From a virus: DNA of 64,000 bases. The notes under the pieces are model-generated. The model was not told the DNA's origin and did no database searches. It was given only the letters and a program-made list of their open reading frames with translations. Location of the stretch: the IMG/VR virus record IMGVR_UViG_3300002026_000009, positions 1-64,000 of that record; one strand, 5' to 3'. Below are positions 2,398-62,148 of the stretch, piece after piece (positions within the stretch are counted from its first letter, which is position 1; the number at the start of each line of letters is the position of its first letter). A program made the position numbers and the translations under genes.

Positions 2398-2434
2398 AAT
2401 GGGCGAAAGCCCATTTAATAGGCGAAAGCCTATT
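2398..2434 (+). terminator. tandem GAAA-loop hairpins
   Basis: AATGGGC-GAAA-GCCCATT followed by AATAGGC-GAAA-GCCTATT, directly after the stop codon. Confidence 0.45.
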
Positions 2435-2461
2435 AAATGTGTTTTTAACTGGAGAAATTAA

Positions 2462-2635
2462 ATGTGGCCTCAAATTGCTGTAATTTGTTTGTTTGTTACT
2501 AACTTTGCGGTTAATTCTGCACTGCATGGTAAACCGCGTGATGTTAACTATTCCATTTGGACTTCCATTATCAATATTGCAATTTGGGCAGTTGTGCTGA
2601 ATTACGGTGGATTTTTTAATAACCTGAAAGGCTAA
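2462..2635 (+). CDS. small membrane protein (57 aa)
   Basis: GGAG RBS. Translates as MWPQIAVICLFVTNFAV...IAIWAVVLNYGG, with two hydrophobic segments. TAA stop. Confidence 0.4.
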   Translation: MWPQIAVICLFVTNFAVNSALHGKPRDVNYSIWTSIINIAIWAVVLNYGGFFNNLKG

Positions 2636-2639
2636 TAAA

Positions 2640-2852
2640 ATGCTGATTATTGCACAATATGTTAATCCATATGGTGAAGAATTTTTTGCATCAATTGTCT
2701 GCGATGAAATGCGCGGTGAGATAATTGAACAACTAACTACCGAATTGGTAGATAAATGCGGCGATGAAATACGGCTCGAGGATATCTATTTCTACAATTC
2801 GGTGCGGCTTAGGGTCGAAATTAAAAAGGAATATGTAATCTCGGAATACTAA
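2640..2852 (+). CDS. hypothetical protein
   Basis: ORF track entry. Tightly packed after the previous stop. TAA stop. Confidence 0.55.
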   Translation: MLIIAQYVNPYGEEFFASIVCDEMRGEIIEQLTTELVDKCGDEIRLEDIYFYNSVRLRVEIKKEYVISEY

Positions 2853-2854
2853 TT

Positions 2855-2880
2855 AAAGCGGCAATTGCCGCTTTTTATTT
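2855..2880. terminator. bidirectional terminator AAAGCGGC-AATT-GCCGCTTT
   Basis: 8-bp palindromic hairpin followed by TTATTT. Confidence 0.6.
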
Positions 2881-2946
2881 ATCTGCCTGCTATAATATTT
2901 ATAGCACAGCATATACCGTGCTATAAATATTGTAGCGGGGGCGCCA

Positions 2947-2976
2947 ATTATACTCTATAATTGGCGCACGTGTCAA
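2947..2976 (-). promoter_or_regulatory. leftward promoter TTGACA-N18-TATAAT with no leftward ORF
   Basis: TGTCAA at 2971-2976 and ATTATA at 2947-2952. The module is paralogous to 1661-1690. Confidence 0.4.
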
Positions 2977-3228
2977 GCATTTTCGTGCAACTTTACATAT
3001 CTTTACACAATGTTGTTTTTTCGCAACACCATGTGCGCCGTGAATGCGAATCATTCTCAGGTAGGTTCGTATATGCGTGTATGCTTATATTCTGTGCTAT
3101 TGATAATATAGCAGCGCTATCATTTTTGTAGCAGCGCTATCAAAAGCATAGCAGAGGTATCACCTCTGCGCCAGTGGTAGTTCGAAGTGAAAATCCTTGC
3201 AAAAATTCCGGGAGGTACCTCGCGCCCA

Positions 3229-3258
3229 ATTATAAGTGGAAATCCTTGGTAATGTCAA
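3229..3258 (-). promoter_or_regulatory. leftward promoter TTGACA-N18-TATAAT with no leftward ORF
   Basis: TGTCAA at 3253-3258 and ATTATA at 3229-3234. Confidence 0.4.
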
Positions 3259-3339
3259 GGGAAAAATTTTGCACTTGAAAAAATTTTCCAAATGAAATAT
3301 AATATTAAAAGTGGAAAAAATTATTTCGGAGGAAAAATA

Positions 3340-3996
3340 ATGAAGTATAAAAAATGGACGGATGAAGATTTTGCAGAATTAGCCAGGCTTAATGCACTAG
3401 GTAAAACTGCTAAAGAAATTGCAGACATATTGGGATGTAGTGATGAAACAATTAAAAGCTATAAAGTAAAACTGGGACTAAGTCGTAGATCAAATAGTAA
3501 CAGATTCGATTTTAATAAGTATAAGAATACCTTGGATGAATTAAGTATTACGGCGGTTGACTGTACATAGGTAAAAGGTAATAGCTTATTCAGCTGCATG
3601 AAGTGTGGGCTTGAGTGGAAAGCTAGATTATTTGATGTATGTTCTAGAAAACAGGAGTGTCCAGAATGTAAACCCAAGCACACGTCTAAAGCCGCTAATA
3701 CCTGGTTAGACTCTATTGGGATTACGCGCAGAGAAGTTAAAATACCTGGTACACAATACAAGGTTGACGGCTTAGGGTCAGATGGGGTTACAGTATACGA
3801 ATTTCTAGGAGACTACTGGCATGGTAATTTAGAGGTATTTGACTCAGAAGATGTAAATGCTGTAACCGGCGATACATATGGTACGTTATTTGATAGCACT
3901 GTTGAAAGGTTATTAGATATTAAATCTAGAGGGTACAAGGTAATTTACATATGGGAAAATGATTACCTTAAAGGTAATAAGCCAGAAGAGATGTGA
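3340..3996 (+). CDS. HTH + zinc-ribbon + PD-(D/E)XK-type putative homing endonuclease, one in-frame TAG (3568)
   Basis: ORFs 3292..3570 and 3598..3996 are in the same frame and are separated only by a TAG. GGAGG RBS before ATG 3340. Motifs CMKCG...CPEC and YEFLGDYWHGN. TGA stop. Confidence 0.6.
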
Positions 3997-4006
3997 AATT
4001 ATTGTC

Positions 4007-4035
4007 TTGCCACAGCAACCACAACCCTGTATAAT
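4007..4035 (+). promoter_or_regulatory. promoter TTGCCA-N17-TATAAT
   Basis: Hexamers read directly. Confidence 0.5.
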
Positions 4036-4114
4036 TAAGGCTTCAAAGGGGAAATTCAAATGACACTGGCAGACCTAACCGACACCGAACGCGCAGACGC
4101 TGAGAAATTCTGGC

Positions 4115-4143
4115 TTGAATCGCAAGATTGATCGGCGTATAAT
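4115..4143 (+). promoter_or_regulatory. promoter TTGAAT-N17-TATAAT
   Basis: Hexamers read directly, upstream of CDS 4182. Confidence 0.55.
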
Positions 4144-4181
4144 ATAGACTTCAACGCAGTAATCAACTAAAGGAAACGAAC

Positions 4182-4481
4182 ATGACTAAAGCAGTAAATT
4201 ACACTCCTGAGCAAGAGACCCAGATCGTTGACCAGTATCAGGCTGGTATGTCCACCGACGAAATCGCTACCATGTTGGGCAAGAGCGTTCGTTCTGTGGT
4301 TGCAAAGTTGTCCCGCCTGGGTGTGTACAAAACCAAGGCAAAAACTGCTGGTGAGACCAAGACTACCAAGGCTGATCTGGTAGCTCTGATTGAGGGTCGT
4401 TATGCTGTTGAGCCTGGTACCTTCGCTGAGCTGGAAAAGCTGACTAAGGCTACCCTCACCTTGCTGGCCCGTGAAGATTGA
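4182..4481 (+). CDS. GcrA-like HTH family protein (paralogue 2)
   Basis: VNYTPEQ...STDEIATMLGKSVRSVVAKLSRLGVY. AAAGGAAA RBS, TGA stop. Confidence 0.7.
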   Translation: MTKAVNYTPEQETQIVDQYQAGMSTDEIATMLGKSVRSVVAKLSRLGVYKTKAKTAGETKTTKADLVALIEGRYAVEPGTFAELEKLTKATLTLLARED

Positions 4482-4486
4482 TGCAG

Positions 4487-4537
4487 TTTAGGGTCAGAAA
4501 ATTTGATATTGACCCTAAATCGCCAAAAGTGTATAAT
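4487..4537 (+). promoter_or_regulatory. palindromic operator overlapping promoter TTGACC-N17-TATAAT
   Basis: Inverted repeat TTTAGGGTCA-N13-TGACCCTAAA at 4487-4519. Its right arm supplies the -35 box. A homologous module lies at 35982-36032. Confidence 0.55.
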
Positions 4538-4551
4538 ATATACTTAGACAC

Positions 4552-5531
4552 TCGCAATAAGGACAGGCAATACCGCATACCGATAAATACTGTCTTGCGT
4601 GAGTGTTCTATTTAATGTTATAATAATATATCTTAGACAGTTCTAGCCTCCGCCACGGACGCGACGAACATACTAAGTAGAGTGTTTCAGGTGTCTGCCA
4701 ACACTGTGACCCTAAGTTGCAGAGGCCTACACAGCGTGTACTGGTTAGAATGATATTCTTGCATAGCAGCAACCATGGCCAGTGGTGCAGGCTACACGAG
4801 TATCAGCCTATGGGACGTTGTTCGTGGACCACTACAACCGGATCGGGAACATTCTACTTAGTATTTGGGTTGCTATCTGATGATGGTCACACCCTGAGCG
4901 TAGCTCTAAAGTTGACCGAAACCCTAGGCTGTGTGGGCCTGCTCCGGCTTAGGGTCATAGTGAAAACTGTAGGTAACTAGGAACACCTATATCCCCTAGT
5001 CGTGTTTGGTGCTCTCACGTACCCAAAGTAGCCCGTTCGTATTCGTTAAGTACACCCCGCTAGAGTGATAGACTTACCATATCCCTGCTATAGGCAATAG
5101 ACTTGGAGCGCAATCTCCTAAGGTAAAACTACTGGCGGAAACGATAAACAGTTCCTTAATTAGCTAAAGGTATAAAACGATAGCTAGCCAATACAACACC
5201 ACCCGAGTGTCTTCGGTATCCCATCATCTAAGCTAAGAGCGTGGTTTTCACTACGTAATCTAGGTATCGAATCCTAGTGGGCGCTGGTTAGTCAATTTTG
5301 TTGCAAAATTGACTAGTCTAGTGAATACTTTATCAGCCAGCCAGGCGATTGGCTCAAGTCTAGCCACCTTGAGATTAGTCCGGTTTAGGGTCAGGGAAAC
5401 CAGTAAGTCAATCGCGGCCTGATTGCGGTAAGTCGTTTCCTAAAGTTTAATGGCAAGATCGCAACTTGTTGTTAGACATAAAACCATCGCCAGTTTTAGA
5501 GCCTCGGTACAGTAGTGCCGGGGCTTTTTTG
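4552..5531 (+). ncRNA. candidate long non-coding transcript (~0.9 kb)
   Basis: Two tandem promoters (-10 boxes at 4532 and about 4618) and a strong terminator at 5500-5531 bracket a region with TAA/TGA stops in all frames. Many local hairpins, e.g. 5291-5313, and a T-arm-like CTAGG-TATCGAATC-CTAG at 5259-5277. Confidence 0.35.
5500..5531 (+). terminator. intrinsic terminator
   Basis: 8-bp stem AGCCTCGG/CCGGGGCT followed by T6. Confidence 0.7.
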
Positions 5532-5561
5532 TTGCCCTAAGAATCCTCGAGAAATTTATGC

Positions 5562-5589
5562 TTGTCAAAATTTTTCATTATGATATAAT
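5562..5589 (+). promoter_or_regulatory. promoter TTGTCA-N16-TATAAT
   Basis: Hexamers read directly. Flanked by TTCTC(G/A)AGAA palindromes. Confidence 0.55.
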
Positions 5590-5639
5590 AAAGTATTCTC
5601 AAGAAATTGTGAGAATTCATTTAACCAAGGAAAATTTAT

Positions 5640-5978
5640 ATGCAGTATTCTCAAGAAACACAAGAAGAAGTTATCGAAGCACTAAAAACTGGAAGTACCC
5701 CTAAAGAAATCCACGAATTTACAGGTATTTCTTTAGCAACTATCTATCGTTGGCGGGATGAGAATTCTCGAGAATCTACTCCAGTTCTCGAGAATTCTCA
5801 GGAACGATTGGAAAAAGTTGTAGAGTTTCTCAAGAAATTCTTAACCCCTCAGCTAGAACAAGATATTAAGCTAGCGGATAAACAACTTAGTGAAGCTACC
5901 GGAGGTTTATCTGAGAAGATATGTCTAAAATGCTTGGAGAGATTTCAGCAGCTTAGGACCGAGTTAGAGTCCTTGTAA
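5640..5978 (+). CDS. small HTH DNA-binding protein
   Basis: STPKEIHEFTGISLATIYRWRDE looks like an HTH. AAGGAAA RBS, TAA stop. Confidence 0.65.
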   Translation: MQYSQETQEEVIEALKTGSTPKEIHEFTGISLATIYRWRDENSRESTPVLENSQERLEKVVEFLKKFLTPQLEQDIKLADKQLSEATGGLSEKICLKCLERFQQLRTELESL

Positions 5979-5982
5979 AATT

Positions 5983-6006
5983 AGCCCACCTTGAGTGGGC
6001 TTTTTC
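5983..6006 (+). terminator. intrinsic terminator GCCCAC-CTTGA-GTGGGC + T5
   Basis: Read directly. Confidence 0.65.
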
Positions 6007-6012
6007 GTGCCT

Positions 6013-6041
6013 ATTATAAAGTGGAAAACCTCCGCTGTCAA
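6013..6041 (-). promoter_or_regulatory. leftward promoter-like TTGACA-N17-TATAAT
   Basis: TGTCAA at 6036-6041 and ATTATA at 6013-6018. The predicted start runs straight into the hairpin at 5983-6006, so function is doubtful. Confidence 0.3.
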
Positions 6042-6294
6042 GTGTATTTTCTAGGCTCTCTGACCCTAAGCCGTAGCAAACTGCGAAGGCTCAAATTGAG
6101 CTTGTACCGCGATAATTTGAGTTAATTTAGTCAATTGTAGTCCAATTTTGGTTAGTCTCATTTAATTTGTGCTATTTGTGGATTTTGTTAGATTTATTCA
6201 GTTTAGGGTCAGGTTTGGGAGGCTGTCTGCGCCCAAAAGTGCTGCAACGGGGTTTTGCAACCACAATTTTTAGGTGGCCACCGTAATCAATTCT

Positions 6295-6424
6295 GACCCT
6301 AAATTGAAGCGATTGGAACAGGTAGGGCAGGTTAGTGCCGACCCTAAATTGAAGCGATTGGAACAGGTAGGGCAGGTTAGTGCCGACCCTAAATTGAAGC
6401 GATTGGAACAGGTAGGGCAGGTTA
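6295..6424 (+). repeat. 45-bp tandem direct repeat, 2.9 copies
   Basis: Identical units start at 6295, 6340 and 6385. Each begins with GACCCTAAATTGAAGCG. The array sits where converging transcription units meet. Confidence 0.95.
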
Positions 6425-6430
6425 CTTTTT

Positions 6431-6730
6431 TCATGTTGTTAGATGCTTGATTAATAGCTGTAGCACGCTTTTATTGCACTTTTCTAGGCTATCAAACACC
6501 AGTGGATCTTCTCCGCATAGTGTAGCAATCTCCTCGACTAAGGTGGCCTTTCGTATAGAAGGAGTACCCATTTTAGTCACGTATGGTTGCTTTCGGTATA
6601 GTCCCATACTAGACAGCTTGGCAATTAGTGAGCGTTCGCTGATTTCTAGTGCCACAGCGATTTCCTGCGGTGTTTGGGTCTCTAGTCGCAACTTAATGTC
6701 GGCTAGGAGTTCTGGAGTATATTTTACCAT
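6431..6730 (-). CDS. GcrA-like HTH family protein (paralogue 3)
   Basis: VKYTPELL...PQEIAVALEISERSLIAKLSSMGLY. ATG 6730 shares TAATG with the upstream stop codon. The ORF track start is 6742. TGA stop. Confidence 0.65.
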   Translation of the reverse strand: MVKYTPELLADIKLRLETQTPQEIAVALEISERSLIAKLSSMGLYRKQPYVTKMGTPSIRKATLVEEIATLCGEDPLVFDSLEKCNKSVLQLLIKHLTT

Positions 6731-7524
6731 TACAGCTCCCAAGGCATACGATTAGCTTTTGGTGCTACAGTCTCCGTAACAGATTTAGATACAACTTCTG
6801 TTTCTACTAGCGGAGGTGGCATAGAATCCCACGATTTAGGGTCAAGGATCATGTACTGATGTCGATTATCTGGATGTGCTGCCCAGGTTTGGCAAAGTAC
6901 CATACGTTGAATCTGCTGCAATTGAGCAGGACCCTTACCACAGCCACCATAAGTCCAGGACAGTCCATTAAGGCCATAAGTGCTAATGTAACTTTTTACA
7001 GTTCCCATTTTATCACCGCTCTTAACTGTAACACCTAGAGTACGCCACTCAATAATATCTTCTAGAGCATACTCTGGGATTTCTTCCGTCATTAGTGTGG
7101 CAAGGTCTTTACCAACCAAGTACTCTAGACCGTCTGACCCCCAGTCGCTGTATTTAATGCCATTGAACTGTTTGTGTGGCATCATTAGCAGCGGCACTAG
7201 ACGGCAATATGGCAGACCCTCAGTTGAGGTCTGCTTGAGCAAATAACGATCGCTAACACTAAACCAGTAGTAGATGCCTTTGTCTAGAGGATCTTTCCAA
7301 TTAGCTTTAATATATTCTCGTGGCTGAATTAAACCATCTTTGCCTCTAGAGATGGACCACTTAGCTACCCTTGCGGAGGCTTGTGCATATGCCCACGGCT
7401 TGTGCTTGATTCCATACTTTTCAGCCCATTCAGCGACCTCTTTCTTCCAATCCTCTTTACCAGTACAGTTCTCAAATAATTCTTGCAAACCAAGATTCTC
7501 AATAGTATTTTTAGCTTTAAACAT
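6730..7524 (-). CDS. hypothetical protein (264 aa)
   Basis: Long ORF with a TAA stop. No family recognised. Confidence 0.7.
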   Translation of the reverse strand: MFKAKNTIENLGLQELFENCTGKEDWKKEVAEWAEKYGIKHKPWAYAQASARVAKWSISRGKDGLIQPREYIKANWKDPLDKGIYYWFSVSDRYLLKQTSTEGLPYCRLVPLLMMPHKQFNGIKYSDWGSDGLEYLVGKDLATLMTEEIPEYALEDIIEWRTLGVTVKSGDKMGTVKSYISTYGLNGLSWTYGGCGKGPAQLQQIQRMVLCQTWAAHPDNRHQYMILDPKSWDSMPPPLVETEVVSKSVTETVAPKANRMPWEL

Positions 7525-7653
7525 GTTTTTCTTTCTGTCTTGCGGGACAATATTAGATTCGCTTTTTCTTTATAAAGAATAAAAAGACGTAAAAATTCTT
7601 AATTGAAAATAAAAAATTTAAATATAGGTTTGGGCTCCACATCATCTGGACAT

Positions 7654-7776
7654 GTGTGTTGAGTCTGAGAAAACTTTTTATAATTTTCGAGGATTTCAAA
7701 TATGTCCCCGGTAAACCGTAGAGGGGGGCCATCATGAACTCCTGAAAAATAAAAAAGATTTTCAGACTCAACACAC
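7654..7776. repeat. 20-bp inverted repeat with ~80-nt spacer
   Basis: GTGTGTTGAGTCTGAGAAAAC at 7654-7674 pairs with GATTTTCAGACTCAACACAC at 7757-7776. Confidence 0.7.
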
Positions 7777-7803
7777 AGTATAATTTCTCTAGTAATTACA
7801 TAT

Positions 7804-7833
7804 ATTGTATCACATTCGAATTATACCTGTCAA
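7804..7833 (-). promoter_or_regulatory. leftward promoter TTGACA-N18-TACAAT
   Basis: TGTCAA at 7828-7833 and ATTGTA at 7804-7809, upstream of the genes at 7524..6431. Confidence 0.55.
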
Positions 7834-7854
7834 ACTTATTTTTATGGTGCTGTT

Positions 7855-8085
7855 TCACCACACGATTTCAATGTAACACTCTCTATGGGTAATTGTATAC
7901 CCTAAACCGCGCAAGGTGTCCAAGACGGGGGTTATTGTTGTAGGCGCAATAAATAAACTGTTGAATCCATTATCCGCTAACTCAGTAATAGCATCTAGTA
8001 TCCTACCCAGTTTTGGATATGGCGCGTACTCAAACTTGTCGCGGAAAGCATTAGTCACTTCTCTAGCCCTTTGTGCTGTTACCAT
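7855..8085 (-). CDS. hypothetical protein, paralogue of 8079..8300
   Basis: The end ...LGYTITHRECYIEIVW resembles ...LGYNVKTVQEWTDTTWKITW in the neighbour. Start at the internal Met (the ORF track gives 8112). TGA stop. Confidence 0.55.
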   Translation of the reverse strand: MVTAQRAREVTNAFRDKFEYAPYPKLGRILDAITELADNGFNSLFIAPTTITPVLDTLRGLGYTITHRECYIEIVW

Positions 8086-18046: not shown

Positions 18047-18129
18047 GGAGTAGATGGAACAATGGCGTTCTAGCCGGCTGTAACCCGGTGGCCTCTGGCA
18101 GGTAAGTTCGATCCTTACCTACTCCACCA
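18047..18129 (+). tRNA. tRNA-Tyr (GTA)
   Basis: Acceptor GGAGTAG/CTACTCC, anticodon loop CTGTAAC, long variable arm, T loop TTCGATC, A73, CCA encoded. Confidence 0.85.
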
Positions 18130-18366: not shown

Positions 18367-18443
18367 GCGGATATGACGAAATAGGTAAACGTGTCACGCT
18401 TAGAACGTGAATTCTGGGGGTTCGAGTCCCTCTATCCGCACCA
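18367..18443 (+). tRNA. class I tRNA with anticodon TAG (formally Leu-CUA reader, identity uncertain)
   Basis: Perfect acceptor GCGGATA/TATCCGC, anticodon arm TCACG-CTTAGAA-CGTGA, 5-nt variable loop, A73, CCA. 77 nt. Confidence 0.7.
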
Positions 18444-18778: not shown

Positions 18779-18873
18779 GCCACCATAGCTTAACGGTAAA
18801 GCTCCGGCCTTATACTCCGGCGATGGCTCTAGATTGGGGCATGATATAGGTTCGAATCCTATTGGTGGTACCA
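18779..18873 (+). tRNA. atypical tRNA, anticodon TAT (Ile-AUA type) with 25-nt variable insertion
   Basis: Acceptor GCCACCA/TGGTGGT, D arm GCTT-AACGGTA-AAGC, anticodon arm CCGGC-CTTATAC-TCCGG, extra hairpin at 18821-18845, T arm ATAGG-TTCGAAT-CCTAT, CCA. Confidence 0.55.
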
Positions 18874-19901: not shown

Positions 19902-20630
19902 ATGACAATAGGTATTTATAGGCTAATATTTAAAGGTACGGATAAAGTTTATATTGGTCAGTAGGTAAATATAAAGAATAGATATTCTGAGCACCTGCGT
20001 ACATTTAAAGAAGGAAGTGCATCTTGTAAACTGCAAGATGCATATAATTTATACGATATACCTAGCCTAGATATACTGTGTTAGTGTAATCTAACTGAGT
20101 TAGACTCACTAGAGAATGAGGCCATAGAACTTTTTGATAGTGCTAATAATGGGTTTAATACATTTACTCATGAAGGTGGGTCTATACGAAGTGCTGGTGG
20201 GCTAGACCACTGGAACTCGAAGTATCCTAAACGACTTATATTAAAAGTCTTTGCAGCTCTCATTAGATACAAAGACTTATCGTATGCTGCAATAGCTAGA
20301 AAGTTAAACACTTCTCCGTATTTAGTACACAATGTTGTATCTGGGAAGCATCATTTATGGTTGAAAGATTCATATCCAGGTAAATTTGCTATAATGTTAG
20401 AGCTTAAAGCCGGTAAAAAAGATAGAACTAAGAAAACAATAAGTACAGAATTAGGTAATATACCAGTACTTGTATCCCCATCAGGTGATTATTTCAAAGT
20501 ACCGAATATTCGACAGTTTTGTGTAGAGCATCCAGACTTTTGTAGTAACATAGATGCATCTAGATCGTCTTTAGGTAAAGTAATTAAAGGCACAAAGACT
20601 TCTCACAAAGGCTGGGTATTAGCCTCTTAA
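19902..20630 (+). CDS. GIY-YIG homing endonuclease, 2 in-frame TAG (19962, 20082)
   Basis: One frame reads MTIGIYRLIFKGTDKVYIGQ-TAG-VNIKNRYSEH...KGWVLAS, 243 codons with no TAA or TGA. The ORF track shows only the last third (20361..20630). Confidence 0.7.
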
Positions 20631-20687: not shown

Positions 20688-21647
20688 ATGCTCGGTTTCG
20701 CTTGTAAAATTAACAGTGCATACGATACAGCAGCTTCCGGGCTGAATATCAAGGGTACAACTCTTACATGGTTACGTGCTAACCCTGATAAAGCGTATAT
20801 CAAGCTATCTGACTTGTTGCGCGATAATCTCAAGGCATTAGAGGCTCAGATTGAGTTTATTGGTGCCCTGCCAAAGCAGCAGCGAATGTTTCGTATTACC
20901 AGTGACTTGCTTCCCGCATACACTACTGATGATTTTATGCCATTCTACTACCAAGATCATATCCAGCAAATACTGGAACATATACTTGGTCGTATTGGTG
21001 CTCGTGCTAGATAGTTAGGCATTCGCCTTTCAATGCATCCTGGCCAGTTCTGTGTATTAGCTAGCGATAATCCAGCGGTTGTAGAAAATTCTATTGCAGA
21101 GTTTGAGTATCACGCTGATATTATTCGTTGGCTAGGGTACGGTAAAACATTTCAAGACTTTAAGTGTAATATCCACATTGGTGGTAAACGTGGCCCTGCG
21201 GGACTGCGTGAAGCGTACTACCAGCTTAGTCAAACTGCACGTAACTGCATTACAGTTGAAAATCAGGAATTTACCTGGGGACTAGAGCATTGCCTAGAAT
21301 TGGCTGATATTATACCTACTGTATTCGATATTCACCACGACTGGATTTACAACGGCAAATATCGTACAGAAATTCCTCTAGACGTGCTAACTAGCTGGCG
21401 TGGGCTTCGTCCTACAATGCATGTTAGCTGTTCTAGAGTTCGTGAGCATGACGCAACGGCTATAGCTACCAAGCAAGCACTACGTGCTCATAGTGATTAC
21501 ATCTACGAGTCTGTGCTGGTAGACGAGCTACTGCCATGTTACCATGAACACTTTGATATAATGGTTGAGGCCAAAGAAAAGAATTTTGCTCAGCAACAGC
21601 TTGTCGATAGTTGGGTAGAAAAATTTGGATTTGACCCCAATGTTTGA
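20688..21647 (+). CDS. UV-damage endonuclease (UvdE family), 1 in-frame TAG (21012)
   Basis: ORFs 20688..21014 and 21033..21647 are in frame. Motifs FRITSDLLP, IRLSMHPGQF, NIHIGG, ENQE and DIHHD span the TAG. Confidence 0.75.
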
Positions 21648-21659
21648 TTACTGTATAAT
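21631..21659 (+). promoter_or_regulatory. promoter TTGACC-N17-TATAAT
   Basis: Hexamers read directly. Feeds the tRNA block at 21.8-22.4 kb. Confidence 0.55.
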
Positions 21660-22411: not shown

Positions 22412-22487
22412 GTTTAGCCGAAAAGGGTAGCTCCCTCCGTTATTACCACGAATAATAACTAGGCTTTCATCTTTCGTGGAGATTATA

Positions 22488-23213
22488 ATGAATAGTGGAA
22501 TTTACTCCCTTAAATGGGATTAGCAAGGTTTAATATATGTTGGCCTAAGCCAGGATATAGATGGCAGATTGAAAAGTCATATAAATATGTTACTAGGTAA
22601 CAGGCATACTAACTATAAAGTACAGAATGCTTTTAATAAATTTGGGCATCCAAGTACAGAAGTACTTGAATTATGTGACATATAGAAGCTAGCAGAAAGA
22701 GAAGTTTATTGGTGTAATAAACTAAATGCGCTAGGACCAAATGGGTTATGTATTGTTGAGCCTGGAATAGTAGGTTTTGGTACAAATAGCAACTATACTA
22801 AATATAGTAAATATCAAATACTAAAAGTATTTTCCTTGTTATACAATGGTCAAAAAAGTTAGACAGAAATAGAATAGATGACCAAAGTATAGTCTAGGAC
22901 TGTAAAAGATATTTCACGTGGTAATTAGCACTTATGGTTAAGGGAACAGTATCCCCAAAAATATGATTTAATGCTAAAAGCTGATAGAGCCGCTATAGGT
23001 ATTCAATAGAAATCCAGAACATTAAAAGGATACTTACTAACTCCATAGCTAGATGTCGTGCCTATACACAGTTATGCAGATTTTGTACGAAATATACATC
23101 CAGAACTGGATCAAAAGTAGATAAATACTATGGTCTAGGGTTTGGCAAGAGTTTTACGTGGCGAACGTAAAACTTATAAAGGGTATAGTAGAGCAGATGG
23201 AGTAGTCGCATAA
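22488..23213 (+). CDS. GIY-YIG homing endonuclease, 10 in-frame TAG
   Basis: 242 codons (MNSGIYSLKWD-TAG-QGLIYVGLSQDIDGRLKSH...YKGYSRADGVVA) with ten TAG and no TAA or TGA until 23211. The 3' end overlaps the suppressor tRNA. Confidence 0.6.
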
Positions 23214-23285
23214 CGGTATTGCAGGGGTCTCTAAAACCCCCGGTCAGAAATGGCCTTCTGAGTTCGACCCTCAGCTACTCCGCCA
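23199..23285 (+). tRNA. suppressor tRNA, anticodon CTA (reads TAG); Ser-type architecture
   Basis: Reads as GGAGTAG TC GCATAACGGTATTGC A GGGGT CTCTAAA ACCCC CGGTCAGAAATGGCCTT CTGAG TTCGACC CTCAG CTACTCC G CCA. It has a 3-bp D stem, a 17-nt variable arm, G73, and G2:C71, A3:U70 and C11:G24 pairs. Its arm lengths and variable arm match tRNA-Ser(GCT) at 27406. Confidence 0.85.
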
Positions 23286-23295: not shown

Positions 23296-23577
23296 ATGAT
23301 AAAAGTACCTGATGAGTGGTTGCCACTAGCCAATGAGTTGTTAGCAGATTTAAATCTGCTGAAAAAACAAAAAGTATACGAGACACTAGAAGTCTTATGG
23401 ATAGTAGAAAAAGACAGGCACTTAAAAGTTGCCTATAGATTAGAGCCTGATGTTGATGAATTATATGAAGTAATCATGAACATCATTAAGTATTACGAGA
23501 AACATATGCAAGCTATTTCCTTTACCAAAACAAGTAATATCCAGGGTAATACTGGAGGAAGTAGCACAGCCTTTTGA
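23296..23577 (+). CDS. hypothetical protein
   Basis: ORF track entry. TGA stop. Confidence 0.6.
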   Translation: MIKVPDEWLPLANELLADLNLLKKQKVYETLEVLWIVEKDRHLKVAYRLEPDVDELYEVIMNIIKYYEKHMQAISFTKTSNIQGNTGGSSTAF

Positions 23578-23601: not shown

Positions 23602-23626
23602 AAGGGGCCAATTGGCCCCTTTTTTA
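23602..23626 (+). terminator. intrinsic terminator AAGGGGCC-AATT-GGCCCCTT + T run
   Basis: Read directly. Confidence 0.7.
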
Positions 23627-23628
23627 TT

Positions 23629-25621: not shown

Positions 25622-26932
25622 ATGTCTTCGATCAATCGCGTATCCCGTGTAGTTAATAAAACTTTCGAGGGTGCTGCTGCAAAACTAATTACTCCTGAAG
25701 CTAAGCTGAATCGTGTGGTTATGGCTTCCATGCTGTGGGAAGGACAATTTTACATCGACGGCCAAAAGTCGGCTGATGTAATTAAAGACCTTGTTGCTAA
25801 AGTCGACCCTAAGGTGGTAGAGTCTATTGCAATCAAGGCACGCGAAGCCATGAAACTTCGCCATGTGCCACTGTTCATTACCCGTGAACTGGCACGTATC
25901 GGCAAACTCTCACACGAGGTGCTAACTCGTGTTATCCAGCGTCCTGACGAATTGGGTGAGTTTGTATCAATGTATTGGATGGATAAGAAACAACCGCTGT
26001 CCAATCAAGTTAAACGTGGTCTAGCTAACGCTTTCCACAAGTTTAACGAATACCAGTTTGCTAAGTGGAATAAGTCTAGCGCAGCTGTGAAGCTCCGTGA
26101 TGTACTATTCCTAACCCACGCTAAACCTCGTACAGAGGGTGAGGCCGATCTCTTCAAGCGTATCGCTGATGAGAAACTGGAAACTCCAGATACTTGGGAA
26201 ACCGAGCTGTCTGGTGGTGCGGATAAAGGTGCTACCTTTACTCGCCTTATGAAGGAAAATAAGTTGGGTGCACTGGCATTCCTTCGTAACCTGCGGAATA
26301 TGGTACAGGCTGGAGTTGACGAAAGCCTTATCCGGGAATACGCTCGTGGTGTGAATACTGACCGTGTTCTTCCATTCCGCTTCCTTGCAGCAGCCCGCAT
26401 CGTTCCTCAATTCGAGGACATGCTGGAAAGCATGATGCTTCGTAGCCTTGAAAGCCACGAAAAGCTGCCAGGAAAAACCGTTCTGCTAATCGACGTTAGT
26501 GGCTCGATGTTCGGTACGAAAGTATCTGAAAAGAGCGATCTTGATCGTTTTGACGCAGCAGCTGCACTTGCTATTCTAGCTCGTGAAATCTGTGAAGAAG
26601 TAGAAATCTACTCCTTCTCGTACAACGCAGTTCGCGTTCCAGCCCGTCGTGGCATGGCACTGGTAGAGGCTATTCGCAACAGCCAAAACCACGGTGGTAC
26701 AGCAACAGGTAAAGCTGTTCGTAGCATTAACGCTAATGTTGAGTATACTCGCTGTATCATCTTCACCGATGAACAGTCGCATGACGTAGTACCTAACCCA
26801 ACAGGTATTGGTTATATCATCAACGTAGCTGCCTACGAAAACGGTATCGGTAACTCTAACTGGACTACCATTAGTGGTATGTCTGAAGCCGTTATCGACT
26901 ATATCCAGTTGTCTGAAAAGACAGTGGATTAA
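25622..26932 (+). CDS. rsr: Ro60-related protein (Rsr): TROVE + vWA domains
   Basis: 436 aa. The N-terminal part is TROVE-like. The vWA MIDAS motif LLIDVSGSM is present. AAAGGAAA RBS, TAA stop. Confidence 0.75.
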   Translation: MSSINRVSRVVNKTFEGAAAKLITPEAKLNRVVMASMLWEGQFYIDGQKSADVIKDLVAKVDPKVVESIAIKAREAMKLRHVPLFITRELARIGKLSHEVLTRVIQRPDELGEFVSMYWMDKKQPLSNQVKRGLANAFHKFNEYQFAKWNKSSAAVKLRDVLFLTHAKPRTEGEADLFKRIADEKLETPDTWETELSGGADKGATFTRLMKENKLGALAFLRNLRNMVQAGVDESLIREYARGVNTDRVLPFRFLAAARIVPQFEDMLESMMLRSLESHEKLPGKTVLLIDVSGSMFGTKVSEKSDLDRFDAAAALAILAREICEEVEIYSFSYNAVRVPARRGMALVEAIRNSQNHGGTATGKAVRSINANVEYTRCIIFTDEQSHDVVPNPTGIGYIINVAAYENGIGNSNWTTISGMSEAVIDYIQLSEKTVD

Positions 26933-27405: not shown

Positions 27406-27492
27406 GGAAGATGTGTTGCAAGGTGCGACATCGGTTTGCTAAACCGCCGTTCAGAAATGGGCTGATAGGTTCGATTCCTATATCTTCCGCCA
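27406..27492 (+). tRNA. tRNA-Ser (GCT)
   Basis: Class II. Acceptor GGAAGAT/ATCTTCC, anticodon loop TTGCTAA, variable arm CGTTCAGAAATGGGCTG, G73, CCA. Confidence 0.85.
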
Positions 27493-28166: not shown

Positions 28167-28793
28167 ATGAGTAAAGATTCCAAAAGCATTGACCTTGATA
28201 ACATTGTTAGTGGAGGCTCTAATGTCTTTACTAAAACAGTTGCACGTGACTATAGCTTCTACCTTAGTGGAGAAATTCTAGAGCCTAGTGAATATATAGA
28301 GTGGTTTGATACTATTCGCACTGCTGGGCCCAACGACAGCGTAACCATTCACATTAATTAGATGGGTGGCAATCTAGATACAGCTATTCAGTTTATTCGT
28401 GTTCTAGGTGAGACTCAAGCAGAGGTTATTACTAGCGTTGAAGGTTCTTGCATGAGTGCAGCTACCATGATCTTTTTATAGGGTCATAGTCTACAGATTA
28501 CACCTTTTAGCCTTTTCATGTTCCACAACTATAGTGGAGGTGCCTTTGGTAAGGGCGGGGAAATGTACGACAACATTATGTTCGAACGTAAGTGGTCAAG
28601 TGAATTTTTACACCATGTTTACAAAGACTTCTTAACAGCAGAAGAAATTAATTCTATGCTAGATAATAAAGATATTTGGATGGGACATACAGAGGCGGAA
28701 GATCGCTGCCGTAAAATGATGAAGGCGCGTACCGCAGCAACAAAAGCTCAACAGTGTGAACTTGATATAGACGACGCAGATGACGCCAGTTAA
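28167..28793 (+). CDS. ClpP-like serine protease, 2 in-frame TAG (28359, 28479)
   Basis: ORFs 28167..28361 and 28518..28793 plus the piece between them share one frame. IHIN-TAG-MGG resembles ClpP INSPGG, GSCMSAA carries the Ser, and MFHNYSGGAFG resembles MIHQPxGG with the His. Confidence 0.7.
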
Positions 28794-51403: not shown

Positions 51404-51590
51404 GTATAAAACATAGTATGAATGGTATCGTACTCTACAAAGTCCAGTAATATTAGACCCAGATGGTTGGGATAGAGCTAACTTTAAATACTCTTTCCAT
51501 GAGGAAGAAATAACTAAAGAAGAGTATCTACACAGACATAGTAGGTCTACTACCTTAGTTTATCCAGTAGAGGCGGAAAATCATGGTTGA
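51396..51590 (+). CDS. hypothetical small protein, 1 in-frame TAG (51414)
   Basis: GTG 51396 is the only possible start. There is no start codon downstream of the TAG. The stop forms ATGGTTGA with the next gene. Confidence 0.45.
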
Positions 51591-52035
51591 CCCACGCGCC
51601 AAAGGCGCCAGGGCAGAAACTGTAATTAGAGATGCACTACGCAAACATACAGGGCTGCAGTGGGAACGAGTACCGGGAAGTGGTGCTCTTGACCCTAAGC
51701 ATAAGCTAAAAGGAGACATTTATGTTCCTAATGCAAATAACCTGTACTGCGTGGAGGCAAAACATTATGCTGAGGATCATCTTACAAGTGCTGTGCTAAC
51801 AAGTAAGAATCCTCAGCTAATGCAGTTCTGGGAACAAACAGTTCGTGAGAGTTAGCAGGTCGATAAAGAACCGTTATTAATCTTTAAGCATGATCGTAGT
51901 AAGCTGTTTGTAGGATTTAAAGATTTCCCAAGTGGTAACTATAATTATATGTTTATACATCACTCAACACATGAGTTCTATGTAGCCTTGTTAGATGATT
52001 GGCTACAACACGAAAGCATAAAATTTACAACTTAA
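51583..52035 (+). CDS. PD-(D/E)XK nuclease, putative Holliday-junction resolvase, 1 in-frame TAG (51853)
   Basis: GDIYV...VEAKH motif. ORF 51583..51855 continues in frame to the TAA at 52033. Confidence 0.6.
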
Positions 52036-52090: not shown

Positions 52091-52111
52091 TGTTGCTTCT
52101 TGGGAGATTTT

Positions 52112-52810
52112 ATGCAAAAAATGGCAGGTATTTATAAGCTTTTATACAAAACTGGTCACTATTATATTGGTCAGAGCGTTAATTTAAGTAGTAGAAAATT
52201 AAATCACTATAAAATGTTAATGCTTAAAAAGCATCATAGCTATAAGATGCAGGAGCATTATGATACACACCAGGAGCTACCTGAATTCATAGTCGTTAAA
52301 TATTGCGATATCAATGATCTTAATGCTGAAGAATCATCCTTAATAAAGTTAGATGATCCATTATGCTTAAATGTAAAAGCCGGTGGAGACAATAATTACG
52401 GATATGAAGCTATAGGTGCTAAGTACCTAACAGCTGATATTGAAGTAGCATTTTTACTTTTGGTAAACAATCCTGGTATTTCACACAAAGAAGTTGCCGA
52501 TATCTCTGGTATAGATATTTCTACAGTACATGATATTAGTGCAGGTAGAAATAGAGTGTTCACGGAAATGAGTAAGATATATCCGGAACTATATGCGCAG
52601 TTGTTAAAACAAAAAGCCCCTAATACACGTGGCAAAACTACTATCATGCTGCAGCATGAAGATGGTAGACAAATTACCTTAATAAGTGGGCAATACTAGG
52701 ATTTTTGCAGAAACTATGGGGTTCAATCCTCTAACCTTTCCAAAGTTGTACAAGGTAAAAGAACATCTACAATGGGGTGGAAACTTATAAATAAATATGA
52801 AAACTTTTAA
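52112..52810 (+). CDS. GIY-YIG homing endonuclease, 1 in-frame TAG (52697)
   Basis: MAGIYKLLYKTGHYYIGQSVNLSSRKLNH... After the TAG comes the typical C-terminus ...GKRTSTMGWKLI. Confidence 0.7.
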
Positions 52811-56805: not shown

Positions 56806-56827
56806 AGTTTTTTAAATGGAGACTATT

Positions 56828-57727
56828 ATGGAAATAAATTCGGGAATATACATATTATACTTTGAATGCGACGATGGTATGTACTACGTAGGCAAATCAT
56901 CAAATATATCAGCTAGATACTATGAGCATTGTAGAAAACTAATGTACGGGTCACATATTAACAAAGCGCTTAGTCGTGGATATAATAAATATGGTGAAGT
57001 ACCTACATTATTTAGGTTAGAAGAAGTATAGGTAGAAAAGCAATCTGAAAGAGAAATTTATTGGATAGCTACATTAGATACGTATAAGAATGGAATGAAC
57101 GCTACTTTAGGTGGTGATGATCTAGGATATGGAGCAAATACTCCTAGTTCACTATATGAAGAAGATACATATATAAAAATACTGTAGGAATTGGCTAATA
57201 CAGATAAGTCTTTACGTGATATATAGATTGATTTAGATGTATCTTATTAGGTTGTTCAAAAAATATCTAATTTCTCAGAACATACCTGGTTAATAGAAAA
57301 GTATCCAGAACTAGCTGCTAAAGTTAAAGAAAAATGTGGTAATAGAAAAGGATATATTGCAGACTCCTAGGTATATGAAAATATTATGAGACTTAGAGCC
57401 TATACAGATATTTCAAACGTAGAGATAGCCGAAAAATGCGGAGTTAAATTATCTGTAGTACGCAATATTATATATGCACAAAATCATCTCTACTTAAGGG
57501 ATAAATTTCCTACTGAGTGGAACTTAATGTATGCGAAACGTGGTACTATACTAAAAGGTAAGAAAGATACTGAGGAATATCCTAATATCAAAGACAAGGA
57601 TGGTAATGTATATAAGATATAGGGTTCGTGCAAGGCATTTAGTGAAGCACATGGATTAGACTATACACATCTACATAAAGTACTAAGAGGTAAAGCTCTA
57701 AGTCATAGGGGCTGGACTCTTGCGTAA
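56828..57727 (+). CDS. GIY-YIG homing endonuclease, 6 in-frame TAG
   Basis: One frame of 300 codons reads SGIYILYFECDDGMYYVGKSSNISARYYEH...HRGWTLA, with six TAG and no TAA or TGA. The ORF track shows only two fragments. Confidence 0.65.
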
Positions 57728-57769: not shown

Positions 57770-58495
57770 TTAATAATGACGGTAGGCTTTTAATACCTTT
57801 TTACATACACCGCTACGAATACAATCATCATCAGTAAATTGTATTACTTCTACTTCGTCTAGATGGCGAAGTTTACCAATGGCATCTTCTAACCCTGTGG
57901 CATCAATTCTATCACGTTGACCAACGTCACCATTAATCATCATTTTAGTATTATTACCAATACGTGTTAGCAACAGCTTCATTTGCATTGGCGTTGCCTA
58001 TTGCATCTCATCTGCCAATATAATGCAGTCTTTAAAGGACCTGCCGCGCATGAATGCTAGAGGGACTGGTTCGATTGTACCAATCTTAAGACAGTATTCA
58101 ACAAAACTCTTACCCAATAGTTCGTTTAAAGTCTCCATATATGGAACTAGATAGGGTAACATCTTGCCTTCAACAAGATCTCCTGGTAAGAATCCTAGCT
58201 CTTCGCCGCAAGCTTCTACAGCTGGGCGAGTAAGGATTATCTTATTTACTCGTCTATAATATAGTTGCTCTGCTGCATAGTGTGTACTAACATACGTTTT
58301 ACCAACCCCCGCATCACCTAGTGCGAATACAATATCCTTAGTATTTAGTGCATCTATATAATCTTGTTGACGATATGTCTGCGCTTCTAGTTTAGGAAAT
58401 TTCTGAGCCGGTTTGCGGTCTGCAGGAGATTGATAGCCCATATCTTGTACCATCTGTGTAGTACGACGAGCTTTTTTACCAGAGGAAGTAGCCAT
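57770..58495 (-). CDS. phoH: PhoH-like ATPase, 1 in-frame TAG (57998-58000)
   Basis: ORFs 57998..58495 and 57770..57988 are in frame. Walker A GDAGVGKT. ...ILADEMQ-TAG-ATPMQMKLLLTRIGNN matches the family pattern DEAQN..QMK..LTR.G. Confidence 0.8.
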
Positions 58496-58503: not shown

Positions 58504-59057
58504 TTAGTTATTTAAAAGAGGTACGTATTTATGTATACGTACATTTAGTACATCATGTACATGATGATTGTTAATATCCCTAGCACTGCGATTAGCATAT
58601 AGTACTTTACGGGATTTAACGTTATATAGTTCAACGTTGTTAAACCAATATCTGTGATTGCAAGAGGCGCTAAGGTTGCACGCTACGCGTGAACGCCGCA
58701 CATCACTAACACCTCCATTATACGCGCTATCTGCAAAAGCTAGCGGCTCGTGCGTGTCTAGGAATAATGAGTAATTGGCTCGACTCATTAGTATCATAGT
58801 GCGTATTTGAAGATCTGGACGACTATAGATAGTACTCCAGTTTAGCTCACCTAACTCTTGTGGCCAACGACGACGCGCATCTTGCAGCGAATCAAATCGT
58901 AGGCTTCCATCTTCTCGCCAGGCTCTTGTAAGCTGCCCAAGGCCCGCACCCTCTTCTTTTGAAGTTTTAAGCCGCGATTGTGGGTTCCAACATTTGGAGT
59001 GCTTAAGGTGCTGGCAGCTTTCATGTTCGATTAGACTGGCGAGATATGCTTTTTTGG
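58504..59057 (-). CDS. lytic transglycosylase (SLT) domain, reached by -1 shift at A_AAA_AAG
   Basis: This frame reads KKAYLASLIEHES...GLGQLT...AYNGG, and it has no start codon of its own before Met 58797. Confidence 0.6.
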
Positions 59058-59450
59058 TACGTTAGGCCAGTATGTGGCTACCTCACTGGCAAGTACTGGT
59101 AGGTGTATTTTAGCTTGTGCCGGAATATACGTCTTAACATCTTGAGCCCGCGCCGATGGACCAAATAATCCGTAGATAGCCATAACGAATAGGCACATGC
59201 CTAAGAAGGTAATAGCCTACCCAATAGACTACTTCTTGGCCTCGTCGTACAGGTCGCCCATATCTACATACGGGAAAAGTAGTTTACGCAGCCAATGTCC
59301 AGCTAGAACTACCAGGATTGGTGTAGTTAGGTAGATTAAGAATTCCTACGTAATTGCCCCGGCTGTAGGGTCTGTTACATATTTAACAACCAATAGTAGT
59401 AGTGTAACTACTAATAGGGATAGGTTACGTTTATTGAAGTAAGGTTTCAT
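59031..59450 (-). CDS. 3-TM membrane protein (holin-like), 3 in-frame TAG, zero-frame product
   Basis: MKPYFNKRNLSLLVVTLLLLVV... with TAGs at 59346, 59229 and 59217. Ends PKKHISPV-TAA. ATGA-coupled to the upstream ORF. Confidence 0.5.
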
Positions 59451-60224: not shown

Positions 60225-60262
60225 TTTAGCCCTAAGAATTTAGGTACGGTTAATAGTAGCTT

Positions 60263-62083: not shown

Positions 62084-62148
62084 GTTTAGGCTCCATAGTT
62101 ACGGTCGATTGTTTGAGCTACTGGTAGGCTAGCATTTGTAGTACCTAG

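Follow-up and report, generated by a model that had tools for sequence, protein, structure and literature searches.

The DNA analysed here, referred to as the window, is a stretch of 64,000 nucleotides (nt) of the IMG/VR record IMGVR_UViG_3300002026_000009, and it carries a transfer RNA gene with the anticodon CUA, tRNA(CUA), which is proposed as a candidate decoder of the stop codon UAG as serine. The source of the window, as read from the sequence, is an uncultivated T5-like phage. Most of its late genes lie outside the window, which holds a T5-like replication module comprising a split NAD ligase, a D5-like regulator, DnaB, a primase, PolA, SbcCD, a flap exonuclease, a dUTPase, and NrdJ. 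The PolA proteins of the window and of Vibrio Demerecviridae share approximately 51% identity. A megablast search against 50,697 phage records gave no close match to the window, and an exact-sequence scan of JGI metagenomes and look-ups of exact proteins likewise returned nothing. Uncultivated relatives are numerous in IMG/VR, and 136 loci (L numbers below) were retrieved for comparison. ARAGORN finds 26 tRNA genes in the window, all on the plus strand, spanning positions 18047-30579. A CUA tRNA is absent from most of the related tRNA clusters. In the window, its gene adjoins HEG2, a GIY-YIG homing endonuclease gene, the end of which (the last five codons, with the TAA stop) reaches 15 nt into the tRNA gene. 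The tRNA gene sits between a promoter-like site, located 5' of a block that runs from tRNA-Pro/Ala/Asp through HEG2 to tRNA(CUA), and a terminator-like hairpin (Table 1); in the promoter scan, the number of sites was not above shuffle expectation.

ARAGORN calls the gene at exactly the coordinates given by an earlier, sequence-only reading of this DNA, on the plus strand and with the anticodon CTA. The gene matches Rfam RF00005 with 48.0 bits (E 1.6e-9; gathering score 29). Its minimum-free-energy fold is a full cloverleaf with an acceptor stem of 7 base pairs (bp), a D stem of 3 bp, and anticodon, variable-arm, and T stems of 5 bp each; the variable-arm stem, which is the fifth helix, is closed by a GAAA loop. 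The fold energy is -31.1 kcal/mol (z = -3.05 vs. shuffles). The 87-nt cloverleaf with the anticodon loop CTCTAAA that the sequence-only reading had described was confirmed, and the 3-bp D stem, the 17-nt variable region, G73, and the pairs G2:C71, A3:U70, and C11:G24 listed there can all be read in the sequence. The pairs G1:C72, G10:C25, and A12:U23 are also present, the variable region reads CGGTCAGAAATGGCCTT, and the D-loop has 9 nt and contains GG.

The label given by ARAGORN is 'Pyl', derived from the anticodon alone, and the CUA anticodon is all that speaks for a pyrrolysine tRNA. Hallmarks of tRNA-Pyl are a 3-nt variable loop, a compact D-loop, and a 6-bp anticodon stem. In the tRNA of the window, the variable arm comprises 17 nt, the anticodon stem has the normal 5 bp, and the D-loop, with GG, is normal as well. 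No pyl genes are found among the annotated window open reading frames (ORFs), and the alignment columns at TAG are not Lys-like. The probability of a pyrrolysine tRNA is therefore negligible.

Two pattern searches for the same tRNA elsewhere, one with the variable arm plus CUA and one in metagenomes with the D arm plus CUA, gave no matches. A scan of IMG/VR for the anticodon stem-loop returned only L001, which has a class II CUA tRNA, and L002, which is without a tRNA. The tRNA of L001 (IMGVR_UViG_3300028805_000183, 5784..5872, minus strand) has G73 and a variable arm of 19 nt, and its anticodon stem-loop does not differ from that of the window tRNA. The L001 contig is otherwise unrelated to the window, and a simple joined-ORF check revealed no TAG-joined ORF pairs in its 14.5-kilobase (kb) locus. 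In L011, a 'tRNA-Pyl(cta)' beside tRNA-Asp, an apparent positional orthologue, has neither Rfam support nor a tRNA fold and was rejected as an ARAGORN false positive.

About 30 TAG codons lie in frame inside 12 homologue-supported genes of the window, which the sequence-only reading had overlooked. In a reverse tblastn test, the proteins of relatives were searched against the window (longest ORFs only, with the remaining antisense shadow ORFs removed by hand). This test recovered approximately 30 TAG sites, each spanned by several homologues. The TAA and TGA matches were few, with one or two high-scoring segment pairs (HSPs), and they fell on the boundaries of genes, belonged to the opposite strand, or turned out to be antisense shadows. 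Curated window genes end in TAA (33 genes) or TGA (21 genes), and TAG terminates none of the 54. Several window ORFs that 'end' in TAG run on in frame. In the relatives, TAG is a genuine stop in 0-25% per family (five gene families sampled), and in-frame stops are essentially lacking in the 158,045 residues aligned.

Individual genes lead to the same picture. UvdE joined across its TAG matches the Pfam UvdE profile with 114 bits over profile positions 29-265, the C-terminal half alone reaching 83.6 bits, and the alignment with PDB 2j6v has no gap at the TAG position. The same holds for the alignment of the PhoH-like ATPase with PDB 3b85 (E 1e-43), where the tails of the homologues have 74-87 residues. 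In the PD-(D/E)XK endonuclease, 16 of 17 homologues have 59-60 residues after the TAG position, as does the window protein. Read-through of the conserved ORF at 60221..60715 adds 13 residues and closes with an ATGA overlap to the next gene; exactly 13 residues follow the TAG position in 8 of its 16 homologues. The 593-amino acid (aa) ORF gains 20 residues by read-through, and all 73 homologues run 19-21 residues beyond the TAG position. The predicted membrane protein, which adjoins a spanin-like ORF at 59868..60224 (a weak spanin match), aligns with L101, L105, and L116 at 38% identity over 134 aa, through all three TAGs. For HEG1, HEG2, and HEG3, intact homologues in the standard code can be aligned over the whole length. 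For HEG2, the reverse test gave 5-15 homologues per TAG site. HEG3 is 38% identical to its homologue in L115 over 302 aa (E 1e-56) and has full-length standard-code homologues P0001-P0008.

Table 1. Features of the window that bear on tRNA(CUA) and on in-frame TAG codons (single TAG positions refer to the window).
Feature	Position	Strand	Evidence or remark
tRNA(CUA), class II, 87 nt; anticodon CUA 23231-23233, G73 23282, encoded CCA 23283-23285	23199..23285	+	ARAGORN, Rfam, fold, D-arm scaffold family
HEG1, GIY-YIG paralogue; TAGs 19962, 20082	19902..20630	+	Homologue alignment, reverse test
HEG2, GIY-YIG paralogue; 10 TAGs: 22521, 22683, 22860, 22875, 22890, 22926, 23007, 23046, 23118, 23136	22488..23213	+	tblastn, MAFFT, reverse test
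HEG3, GIY-YIG paralogue; 6 TAGs: 57029, 57185, 57224, 57248, 57368, 57620	56816..57727	+	Homologues, reverse test
Probable fourth GIY-YIG endonuclease; TAG 52697	52100..52810	+	Pfam GIY-YIG 17.6 bits, below cutoff; 5 homologues align across TAG
UvdE UV-damage endonuclease; TAG 21012-21014	20688..21647	+	Pfam UvdE, PDB 2j6v
Clp-protease-family protein; TAGs 28359, 28479	28167..28793	+	Pfam CLP_protease 29.7 bits, match covers both TAGs
Conserved ORF of unknown function; TAG 47529	47412..47816	+	13 HSPs spanning TAG; 10 homologues in reverse test
PD-(D/E)XK phage endonuclease; TAG 51853	51583..52035	+	Pfam PDDEXK_15 105.8 bits spanning TAG
PhoH-like ATPase; TAG 57998-58000	57770..58495	-	PDB 3b85, homologues
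Predicted membrane protein; 3 TAGs (first bases 59348, 59231, 59219)	59031..59450	-	Homology to L101, L105, L116
Conserved ORF; TAG 60263-60265	60221..60715	-	Homologue lengths
593-aa tail-fibre/tail-spike-like ORF (our reading, no family match); TAG 62149-62151	62086..63867	-	Homologue lengths
Candidate single gene (helix-turn-helix domain plus treble-clef zinc finger); TAG 3568	3292..3996	+	Continuous translation; Pfam domains either side of TAG; without homologue support
tRNA-Tyr(GUA); A73, 12-nt variable region	18047..18129	+	ARAGORN, element dissection
tRNA-Ser(GCU), Ser reference encoded by the phage; G73	27406..27492	+	ARAGORN, element dissection
Promoter-like site TTGACC-17-TATAAT, 11/12	21631..21659	+	Consensus match only; 5' of tRNA-Pro/Ala/Asp - HEG2 - tRNA-CUA block
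Terminator-like hairpin, 8 bp, 6 GC, then T run	23602..23621	+	Consensus match only; 3' of ORF 23296..23577

The TAG codons might be regarded as products of gene decay or of sequencing or assembly errors, with the tRNA being unrelated or an inactive relic. Homing endonucleases do decay often, and the window is probably a metagenome assembly, as no isolate matches it. This explanation is extremely unlikely, because TAG alone interrupts the genes (approximately 30 cases vs. no credible TAA or TGA), frameshifts are absent, conserved enzymes are affected with homology on both sides of TAG, and the genome itself supplies a tRNA with the matching anticodon CUA. Moreover, a TAG-only pattern is seen in a relative, L079 (IMGVR_UViG_3300035661_000023), which is 70% identical to the window on a 454-aa protein. 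L079 is heavily TAG-recoded in structural genes: its 2,494-aa ORF at 2417..9901 is broken solely by 9 TAGs, and most neighbouring ORFs carry 1-3 TAGs, the TAG columns being noisy and rich in Ala, Ser, and Thr. The retrieved L079 locus covers the structural genes, not the tRNA region, and it holds two of the few in-frame stops among the relatives. L079 is the exception and most relatives use the standard code, so the recoding is derived and rare in the clade. For the 454-aa protein, the homologue nearest in sequence, with 78% identity, comes from another contig, L020 (IMGVR_UViG_3300031990_000005). The G+C content is 64% over the retrieved L020 locus vs. 41% in the window, an unusually large gap for proteins so alike.

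The TAG codons are distributed very unevenly: next to none in replication genes, one to three each in several accessory and minus-strand genes (PhoH, the membrane protein, the tail-fibre-like protein), and many in the GIY-YIG homing endonucleases. HEG1-3 together contain 18 TAGs, no TAA, and no TGA in 787 codons, that is, 22.9 TAGs per 1000 codons, and TAG makes up 25% of the sum of TAG and standard Ser codons there. The replication and nucleotide genes have 2 TAGs in 5,944 codons (0.34 per 1000), the minus-strand block at 57.8-63.9 kb has 6 in 1,891, the non-endonuclease ORFs of the tRNA region 3 in 1,805, and the left block 1 in 2,518. The difference in TAG density is significant both between the homing endonucleases and the rest (Fisher p = 6e-13) and between the minus-strand block and the replication genes (p = 0.005). 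TAG is absent from an HNH endonuclease (43983..44888), and the four GIY-YIG endonucleases have 19 together. The enrichment is specific to one homing endonuclease family, GIY-YIG.

This unevenness favours a leaky suppression, in which release factor 1 (RF1) would still terminate efficiently at TAG and the TAGs, passed by partial read-through, would serve as attenuators or timers; the inserted residue would still be Ser. In the homing endonucleases the effect would be multiplicative, and the toxic nucleases would be made in very low amounts, or later, once the tRNA has built up. It fits with such a scheme that no release factor, synthetase, or RF1 antagonist is found among the annotated ORFs of the 64-kb window, that some TAGs lie on conserved non-Ser residues, such as an Asn of PhoH, and that Borges et al. 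described a homing endonuclease family that prefers the recoded stop and proposed timing control (bioRxiv 10.1101/2021.08.26.457843). If suppression were leaky, however, TAG stops should persist, and the curated genes have none, unlike those of the relatives. TAG also occurs in genes whose products are expected in quantity (the tail-fibre-like protein, the Clp-like protease, and PhoH), and the ten TAGs of HEG2 would leave negligible product unless decoding were efficient. Leaky suppression therefore seems rather unlikely. Near-complete decoding, i.e., a true reassignment, is preferred over partial use as a timer or attenuator because TAG terminators appear to be absent. The term suppressor used in the sequence-only reading understates the case, as TAG behaves like a reassigned sense codon.

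The residue inserted at TAG was assessed on 28 curated TAG columns by likelihood under an empirical substitution model and under BLOSUM62. Ser is the maximum-likelihood residue under both models, with a bootstrap of 87-89%. Thr, Ala, and Asn follow at 5-7 log units below Ser, and Gln, Tyr, and Leu are 16.5/8.5, 38/20, and 37.5/20.7 log units below (empirical/BLOSUM62). In a calibration with 28 random columns of known residue, the true residue was recovered in approximately 100% of draws for all 20 amino acids. Ser makes up 19% of the residues at TAG columns vs. 3.8% at non-Ser columns, a share that was reached in none of 20,000 random draws and that is close to that of real Ser codons at variable sites (21%). 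TAG 19962 of HEG1 lies on the invariant Ser of the GIY-YIG motif Y-[VI]-G-x-S (15/15 Ser), and three more columns are Ser-dominated (11/15, 11/15, and 7/15, with two window paralogues counted). In the Clp-like protease, TAG 28359 corresponds to the Ser of 'INSxGG' (five Ser, one Thr), and the column of TAG 28479 has four His, one Ser, and one Asn. The TAG of PhoH aligns to the Asn of 'DEAQN' (14 Asn, one Ser), and the column of the 593-aa ORF is mixed (Thr 27, Ala 19, Ser 11, Gln 6, Asp 5, Leu 3, Pro 2). The sequence-only reading had also named Ser as the most likely residue at TAG; the codon alignments provide the main support for it, and they reject Gln, Tyr, and Leu.

Gln is the residue that would be expected by analogy with genetic code 15 of crAss-like and Lak phages, and it could be attached through mischarging by glutaminyl-tRNA synthetase (GlnRS) via U35, G73, G2:C71, and G10. 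Amber suppressors with U35 and G73 can indeed be mischarged by GlnRS, and for this reason the class argument by which the sequence-only reading had excluded Gln, namely that tRNA-Gln is class I, was too quick. The exclusion itself stands on the codon data: Gln makes up 1.5% of the residues aligned to TAG, where 45% is found at true Gln columns, and it won in none of the bootstrap replicates. The class II body, the strong G1:C72 pair, and A3:U70 in place of G3:C70 also argue against Gln. In favour of this assignment, Gln is the sole amber reassignment reported for phages with a code unlike that of the host (Borges et al., bioRxiv 10.1101/2021.08.26.457843), and table 15 is the default assignment by annotation tools. 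Overall, a Gln reading is very improbable.

The features of the tRNA bear on the same question. tRNA(CUA) and the reference tRNA-Ser(GCU) have equal element lengths, and their variable regions share the layout 1 + 5 bp/4 + 2 and are identical at 14 of 17 positions, in agreement with the equal arm lengths and near-identical variable arms seen in the sequence-only reading. Where it placed a tRNA-Ser(UGA), at about 28036, a tRNA-like element with CAGAAATGG is present at approximately 28037-28127, and ARAGORN makes no call there; the element resembles tRNA-Ser(UGA), has U as the discriminator and a C:A mismatch in the anticodon stem, and its sole Rfam match is to the tRNA-Sec model (28040-28124, 32.4 bits, sub-threshold). 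The exact D-arm scaffold of tRNA(CUA), TCGCATAAYGGTATTGCA, was found in 73 well-folded viral tRNAs. Sixty of these have Ser anticodons (56 with G73) and three have a Tyr anticodon, all three with A73; within the scaffold, G73 tracks Ser and A73 tracks Tyr (Fisher p = 9e-4).

Some tRNAs with the Ser-type D-arm scaffold, from other viral contigs, carry other anticodons. Class II members have CCA with G73 in L141, L190, and L202, and CTG with U73 in L140, L189, and L200; further ones are found in L150 (TTG), L183 (GTT), and L148 (TGT). [quoted passage not shown]

Tyr is the second residue suggested by the tRNA itself. A supF-type suppressor could be a descendant of the phage tRNA-Tyr(GUA) in which G34 has become C, still charged by tyrosyl-tRNA synthetase (TyrRS). 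The acceptor stem of tRNA(CUA), GGAGTAG/CTACTCC, is that of the window tRNA-Tyr in all seven pairs, a likeness overlooked in the sequence-only reading, and U35, a major Tyr determinant, is kept. G1:C72, G2:C71, and C11:G24 also occur in the phage tRNA-Tyr and are non-discriminating. Among phage records, an annotated tRNA-Tyr matches best over the full length (74-75%). By whole-sequence similarity, a phage tRNA-Tyr (75%) ranks ahead of a tRNA-Ser (72%), the mean identity is 0.627 to Tyr tRNAs and 0.615 to Ser tRNAs, and Ser and Tyr are not separated in this way. A position-specific, structure-parsed tRNA classifier (34 of 37 correct in leave-one-out) calls tRNA(CUA) Tyr by 9.5 log units when the acceptor stem is included and Ser by 4.6 log units when it is left out, so the Tyr call is due entirely to the acceptor stem.

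On the other side, tRNA(CUA) has G73 instead of the A73 carried by all 8 + 3 Tyr tRNAs examined, and its variable arm is Ser-type with 17 nt vs. 12 nt in the window tRNA-Tyr. The statement of the sequence-only reading that class II Tyr and Leu tRNAs carry A73 is true for 8 of 8 Tyr and 14 of 14 retained Leu tRNAs of the window and its relatives. Tyrosylation depends critically on A73 and U35, G73 in tRNA-Ser acts as an antideterminant against TyrRS and leucyl-tRNA synthetase (LeuRS), and bacterial tRNA-Ser molecules conserve G1:C72 and G2:C71 (PMC9976931). Of the residues aligned to TAG, 1.4% are Tyr, where about 60% would be expected. A Tyr suppressor is thus a most unlikely explanation. tRNA(CUA) is best described as a Tyr/Ser mosaic in which the parts predicted to bear identity (the D-arm scaffold, the variable arm, and G73) are Ser-type. 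The wording 'built like tRNA-Ser' used earlier applies to these three parts, the acceptor stem being that of tRNA-Tyr. Taken alone, the features of the tRNA are ambiguous; G73, the variable arm, and the D-arm scaffold point to Ser.

Based on these results, TAG has probably been abandoned as a terminator in this T5-like phage and is read as a sense codon, with serine as the most likely meaning. A sense decoding of TAG in which tRNA(CUA) takes part is very likely, and Ser can be named as the inserted residue with good confidence. According to the proposed mechanism, tRNA(CUA) would be transcribed with the plus-strand tRNA cluster and then processed, its CCA being already encoded. The host seryl-tRNA synthetase (SerRS), which disregards the anticodon, would recognise the long variable arm, G1:C72, G2:C71, and G73, and G73 would also block TyrRS and LeuRS. 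The charged tRNA would then insert Ser at UAG in competition with host RF1, and the full-length TAG-containing proteins would depend on it. The structure of the tRNA, the in-frame TAGs of conserved genes, the missing TAG terminators, the standard code of relatives, and the Ser-like columns are computational results; the charging by SerRS, the efficiency against RF1, the timing of expression, and a regulatory purpose are what we infer.

Several observations weigh against this interpretation. The bootstrap for Ser is 87-89%, not 100%, with Asn, Thr, and Ala next best. The 19% of Ser at the TAG columns is well below the 43% at average Ser codons, Asp, Glu, Asn, or Ala prevails in several TAG columns, and one TAG falls on the conserved Asn of PhoH. 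tRNA(CUA) and the phage tRNA-Tyr have one and the same acceptor stem, and a validated simple classifier that includes it decides for Tyr. The identity rules used are those of E. coli and are extrapolated to the host of this phage. Several short ORFs with TAG near the 3' end are without homologues, and occasional use of TAG as a stop is possible in them. The window covers 64 kb only, and a release factor, an aminoacyl-tRNA synthetase, or a second suppressor could be encoded elsewhere in the genome.

Other features of the tRNA cluster deserve mention. A tRNA-Leu(UAG) at 18367..18443, also present in L015 (2620..2696), has 77 nt including CCA, is class I sized, and has a short variable region. 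The Leu(UAG) tRNAs of L007, L008, L010, and L013 are unlike it, being 84-nt class II molecules, which makes the charging identity of the 77-nt form ambiguous. A tRNA-Ile(UAU) at 18779..18873, found also in L005, L007, L008, L010, and L015, has a conserved extra segment of approximately 22-25 nt in the variable region (genes of 92-95 nt), possibly an intron-like insert or else an additional arm. A Ro60/TROVE protein with a vWA domain is encoded at 25622..26932, within the cluster, and is conserved in 15 related contigs. A Y RNA or a transfer-messenger RNA (tmRNA) was considered beside this gene; the YrlA and tmRNA-like matches downstream, at 27300-27390, were all insignificant. ARAGORN found no tmRNA in the window. 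In L005, L006, L009, and L010, the homologous tRNA region contains tmRNA genes, and their tag peptides end in ...ALAA or ...ALVA.

Serine amber suppressors are known from the laboratory. E. coli supD (serU, tRNA-Ser with CGA changed to CUA) and laboratory T4 psu1+ are of this type, and they resemble the present proposal in that a class II Ser tRNA with CUA inserts Ser and SerRS does not read the anticodon. They differ in being single-mutation suppressors in a setting where TAG is still a stop, whereas the tRNA of the window is natural and fixed, with about 30 sense TAGs per 64 kb. An orthologous tRNA-Ser(CGA) that could be the ancestor of tRNA(CUA) was not found. Himeno et al. (1990) reportedly turned E. 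coli tRNA-Tyr into a Ser acceptor in vitro by changing A73 to G73 and lengthening the variable arm. tRNA(CUA) has the same acceptor helix as the phage tRNA-Tyr and differs from it in both of these features; unlike the in vitro conversion, it is natural and has a D arm of the Ser scaffold type. For its origin, recombination with or descent from a tRNA-Ser is therefore as possible as a conversion of tRNA-Tyr. In allo-tRNAs, a long variable arm and G73 or U73 uncouple Ser identity from the anticodon, and CUA variants insert Ser in E. coli (PMC5389517). The allo-tRNAs have 8/4 or 9/3 acceptor/T arms, whereas tRNA(CUA) has the canonical 7/5.

Stop recoding with Sup-CTA tRNAs that turn TAG to Gln has been described in crAss-like, Lak, and other phages (bioRxiv 10.1101/2021.08.26.457843; bioRxiv 10.1101/2022.01.06.475225; PMC11210395), and in phages with a code unlike that of the host Borges et al. 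observed only TAG to Gln and TGA to Trp (bioRxiv 10.1101/2021.08.26.457843). The code-15 phages are like the window in having in-frame TAGs in conserved genes, a phage CUA tRNA, and close relatives with the standard code; the recoded codon is likewise near-absent from replication genes and enriched in a homing endonuclease family. They insert Gln, whereas Ser is the predicted residue here. The route also differs: GlnRS accepts a near-cognate anticodon in the code-15 phages, and the class II tRNA of the window would be charged by an anticodon-blind, SerRS-type route. Finally, the window lineage is T5-like and environmental, and the code-15 phages are gut phages of the crAss, Lak, or Agate type. 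In the literature searched, in which subscription papers are incompletely covered, there is no precedent for a phage that naturally reads TAG as Ser or as Ala, and TAG to Ser would be a new phage code beside the known TAG to Gln and TGA to Trp.

The nearest parallel is found in Shenzhenvirus, to which the Aeromonas phages AhSzq-1, AhSzw-1, and Akh-2 belong. Cook et al. (2024) reported sporadic reassignment in Demerecviridae, the flagged genomes being Shenzhenvirus with table 15 (PMC11210395), and AhSzq-1 and AhSzw-1 appear as table 15 in their Supplementary Table S1 (PMC11210395). These phages share with the window a T5-like family, a CUA tRNA in the tRNA cluster, and in-frame TAGs. Akh-2 (MK318083.1; L004 2676..2750, L208) has an annotated tRNA-Sup-CTA with G3:U70 and A73, which is the Ala identity set, and this tRNA is 78% identical to a phage tRNA-Ala. 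It is class I and unrelated in sequence to the tRNA(CUA) of the window. The recoding of Akh-2 is far denser than that of the window and includes the replication genes; one 491-aa ORF contains 22 TAGs, and GenBank splits such genes into tiny coding sequences. The codon inference over 49 columns gave Ala with a bootstrap of 78% and Gln 10.2 log units behind. Akh-2 thus appears to read TAG as alanine. The agreement of tRNA and codons on Ala validates the codon method and suggests a general route via anticodon-blind synthetases.

Gene callers offer tables 4, 11, and 15 only, and such phages are consequently fragmented into small ORFs or mistranslated. The concentration of TAG in homing endonucleases offers a testable tie between the code change and the control or containment of selfish nucleases. 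On a wider reading, which we put forward as a tentative and rather doubtful one, amber would have been rewritten at least twice in T5-like phages via anticodon-blind synthetases, SerRS here and alanyl-tRNA synthetase in Shenzhenvirus, and the code change in the window lineage would be tied to selfish DNA. Dense TAGs would 'code-lock' the GIY-YIG endonucleases, and the HEG2-tRNA(CUA) pair could act as a mobile cassette for the code change, carrying the new code along when the tRNA cluster is co-converted. Synthetic biology could make use of natural amber decoders of the Ser and Ala type if they are efficient in the presence of wild-type RF1, and since Akh-2 is a cultured phage, the general principle is open to bench testing. 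The known phage code changes are explained by synthetases that tolerate near-cognate anticodons. If TAG to Ser is true, it would form, together with the TAG to Ala suggested for Shenzhenvirus, a second and simpler route, in which any tRNA of an anticodon-blind synthetase can capture a stop codon.

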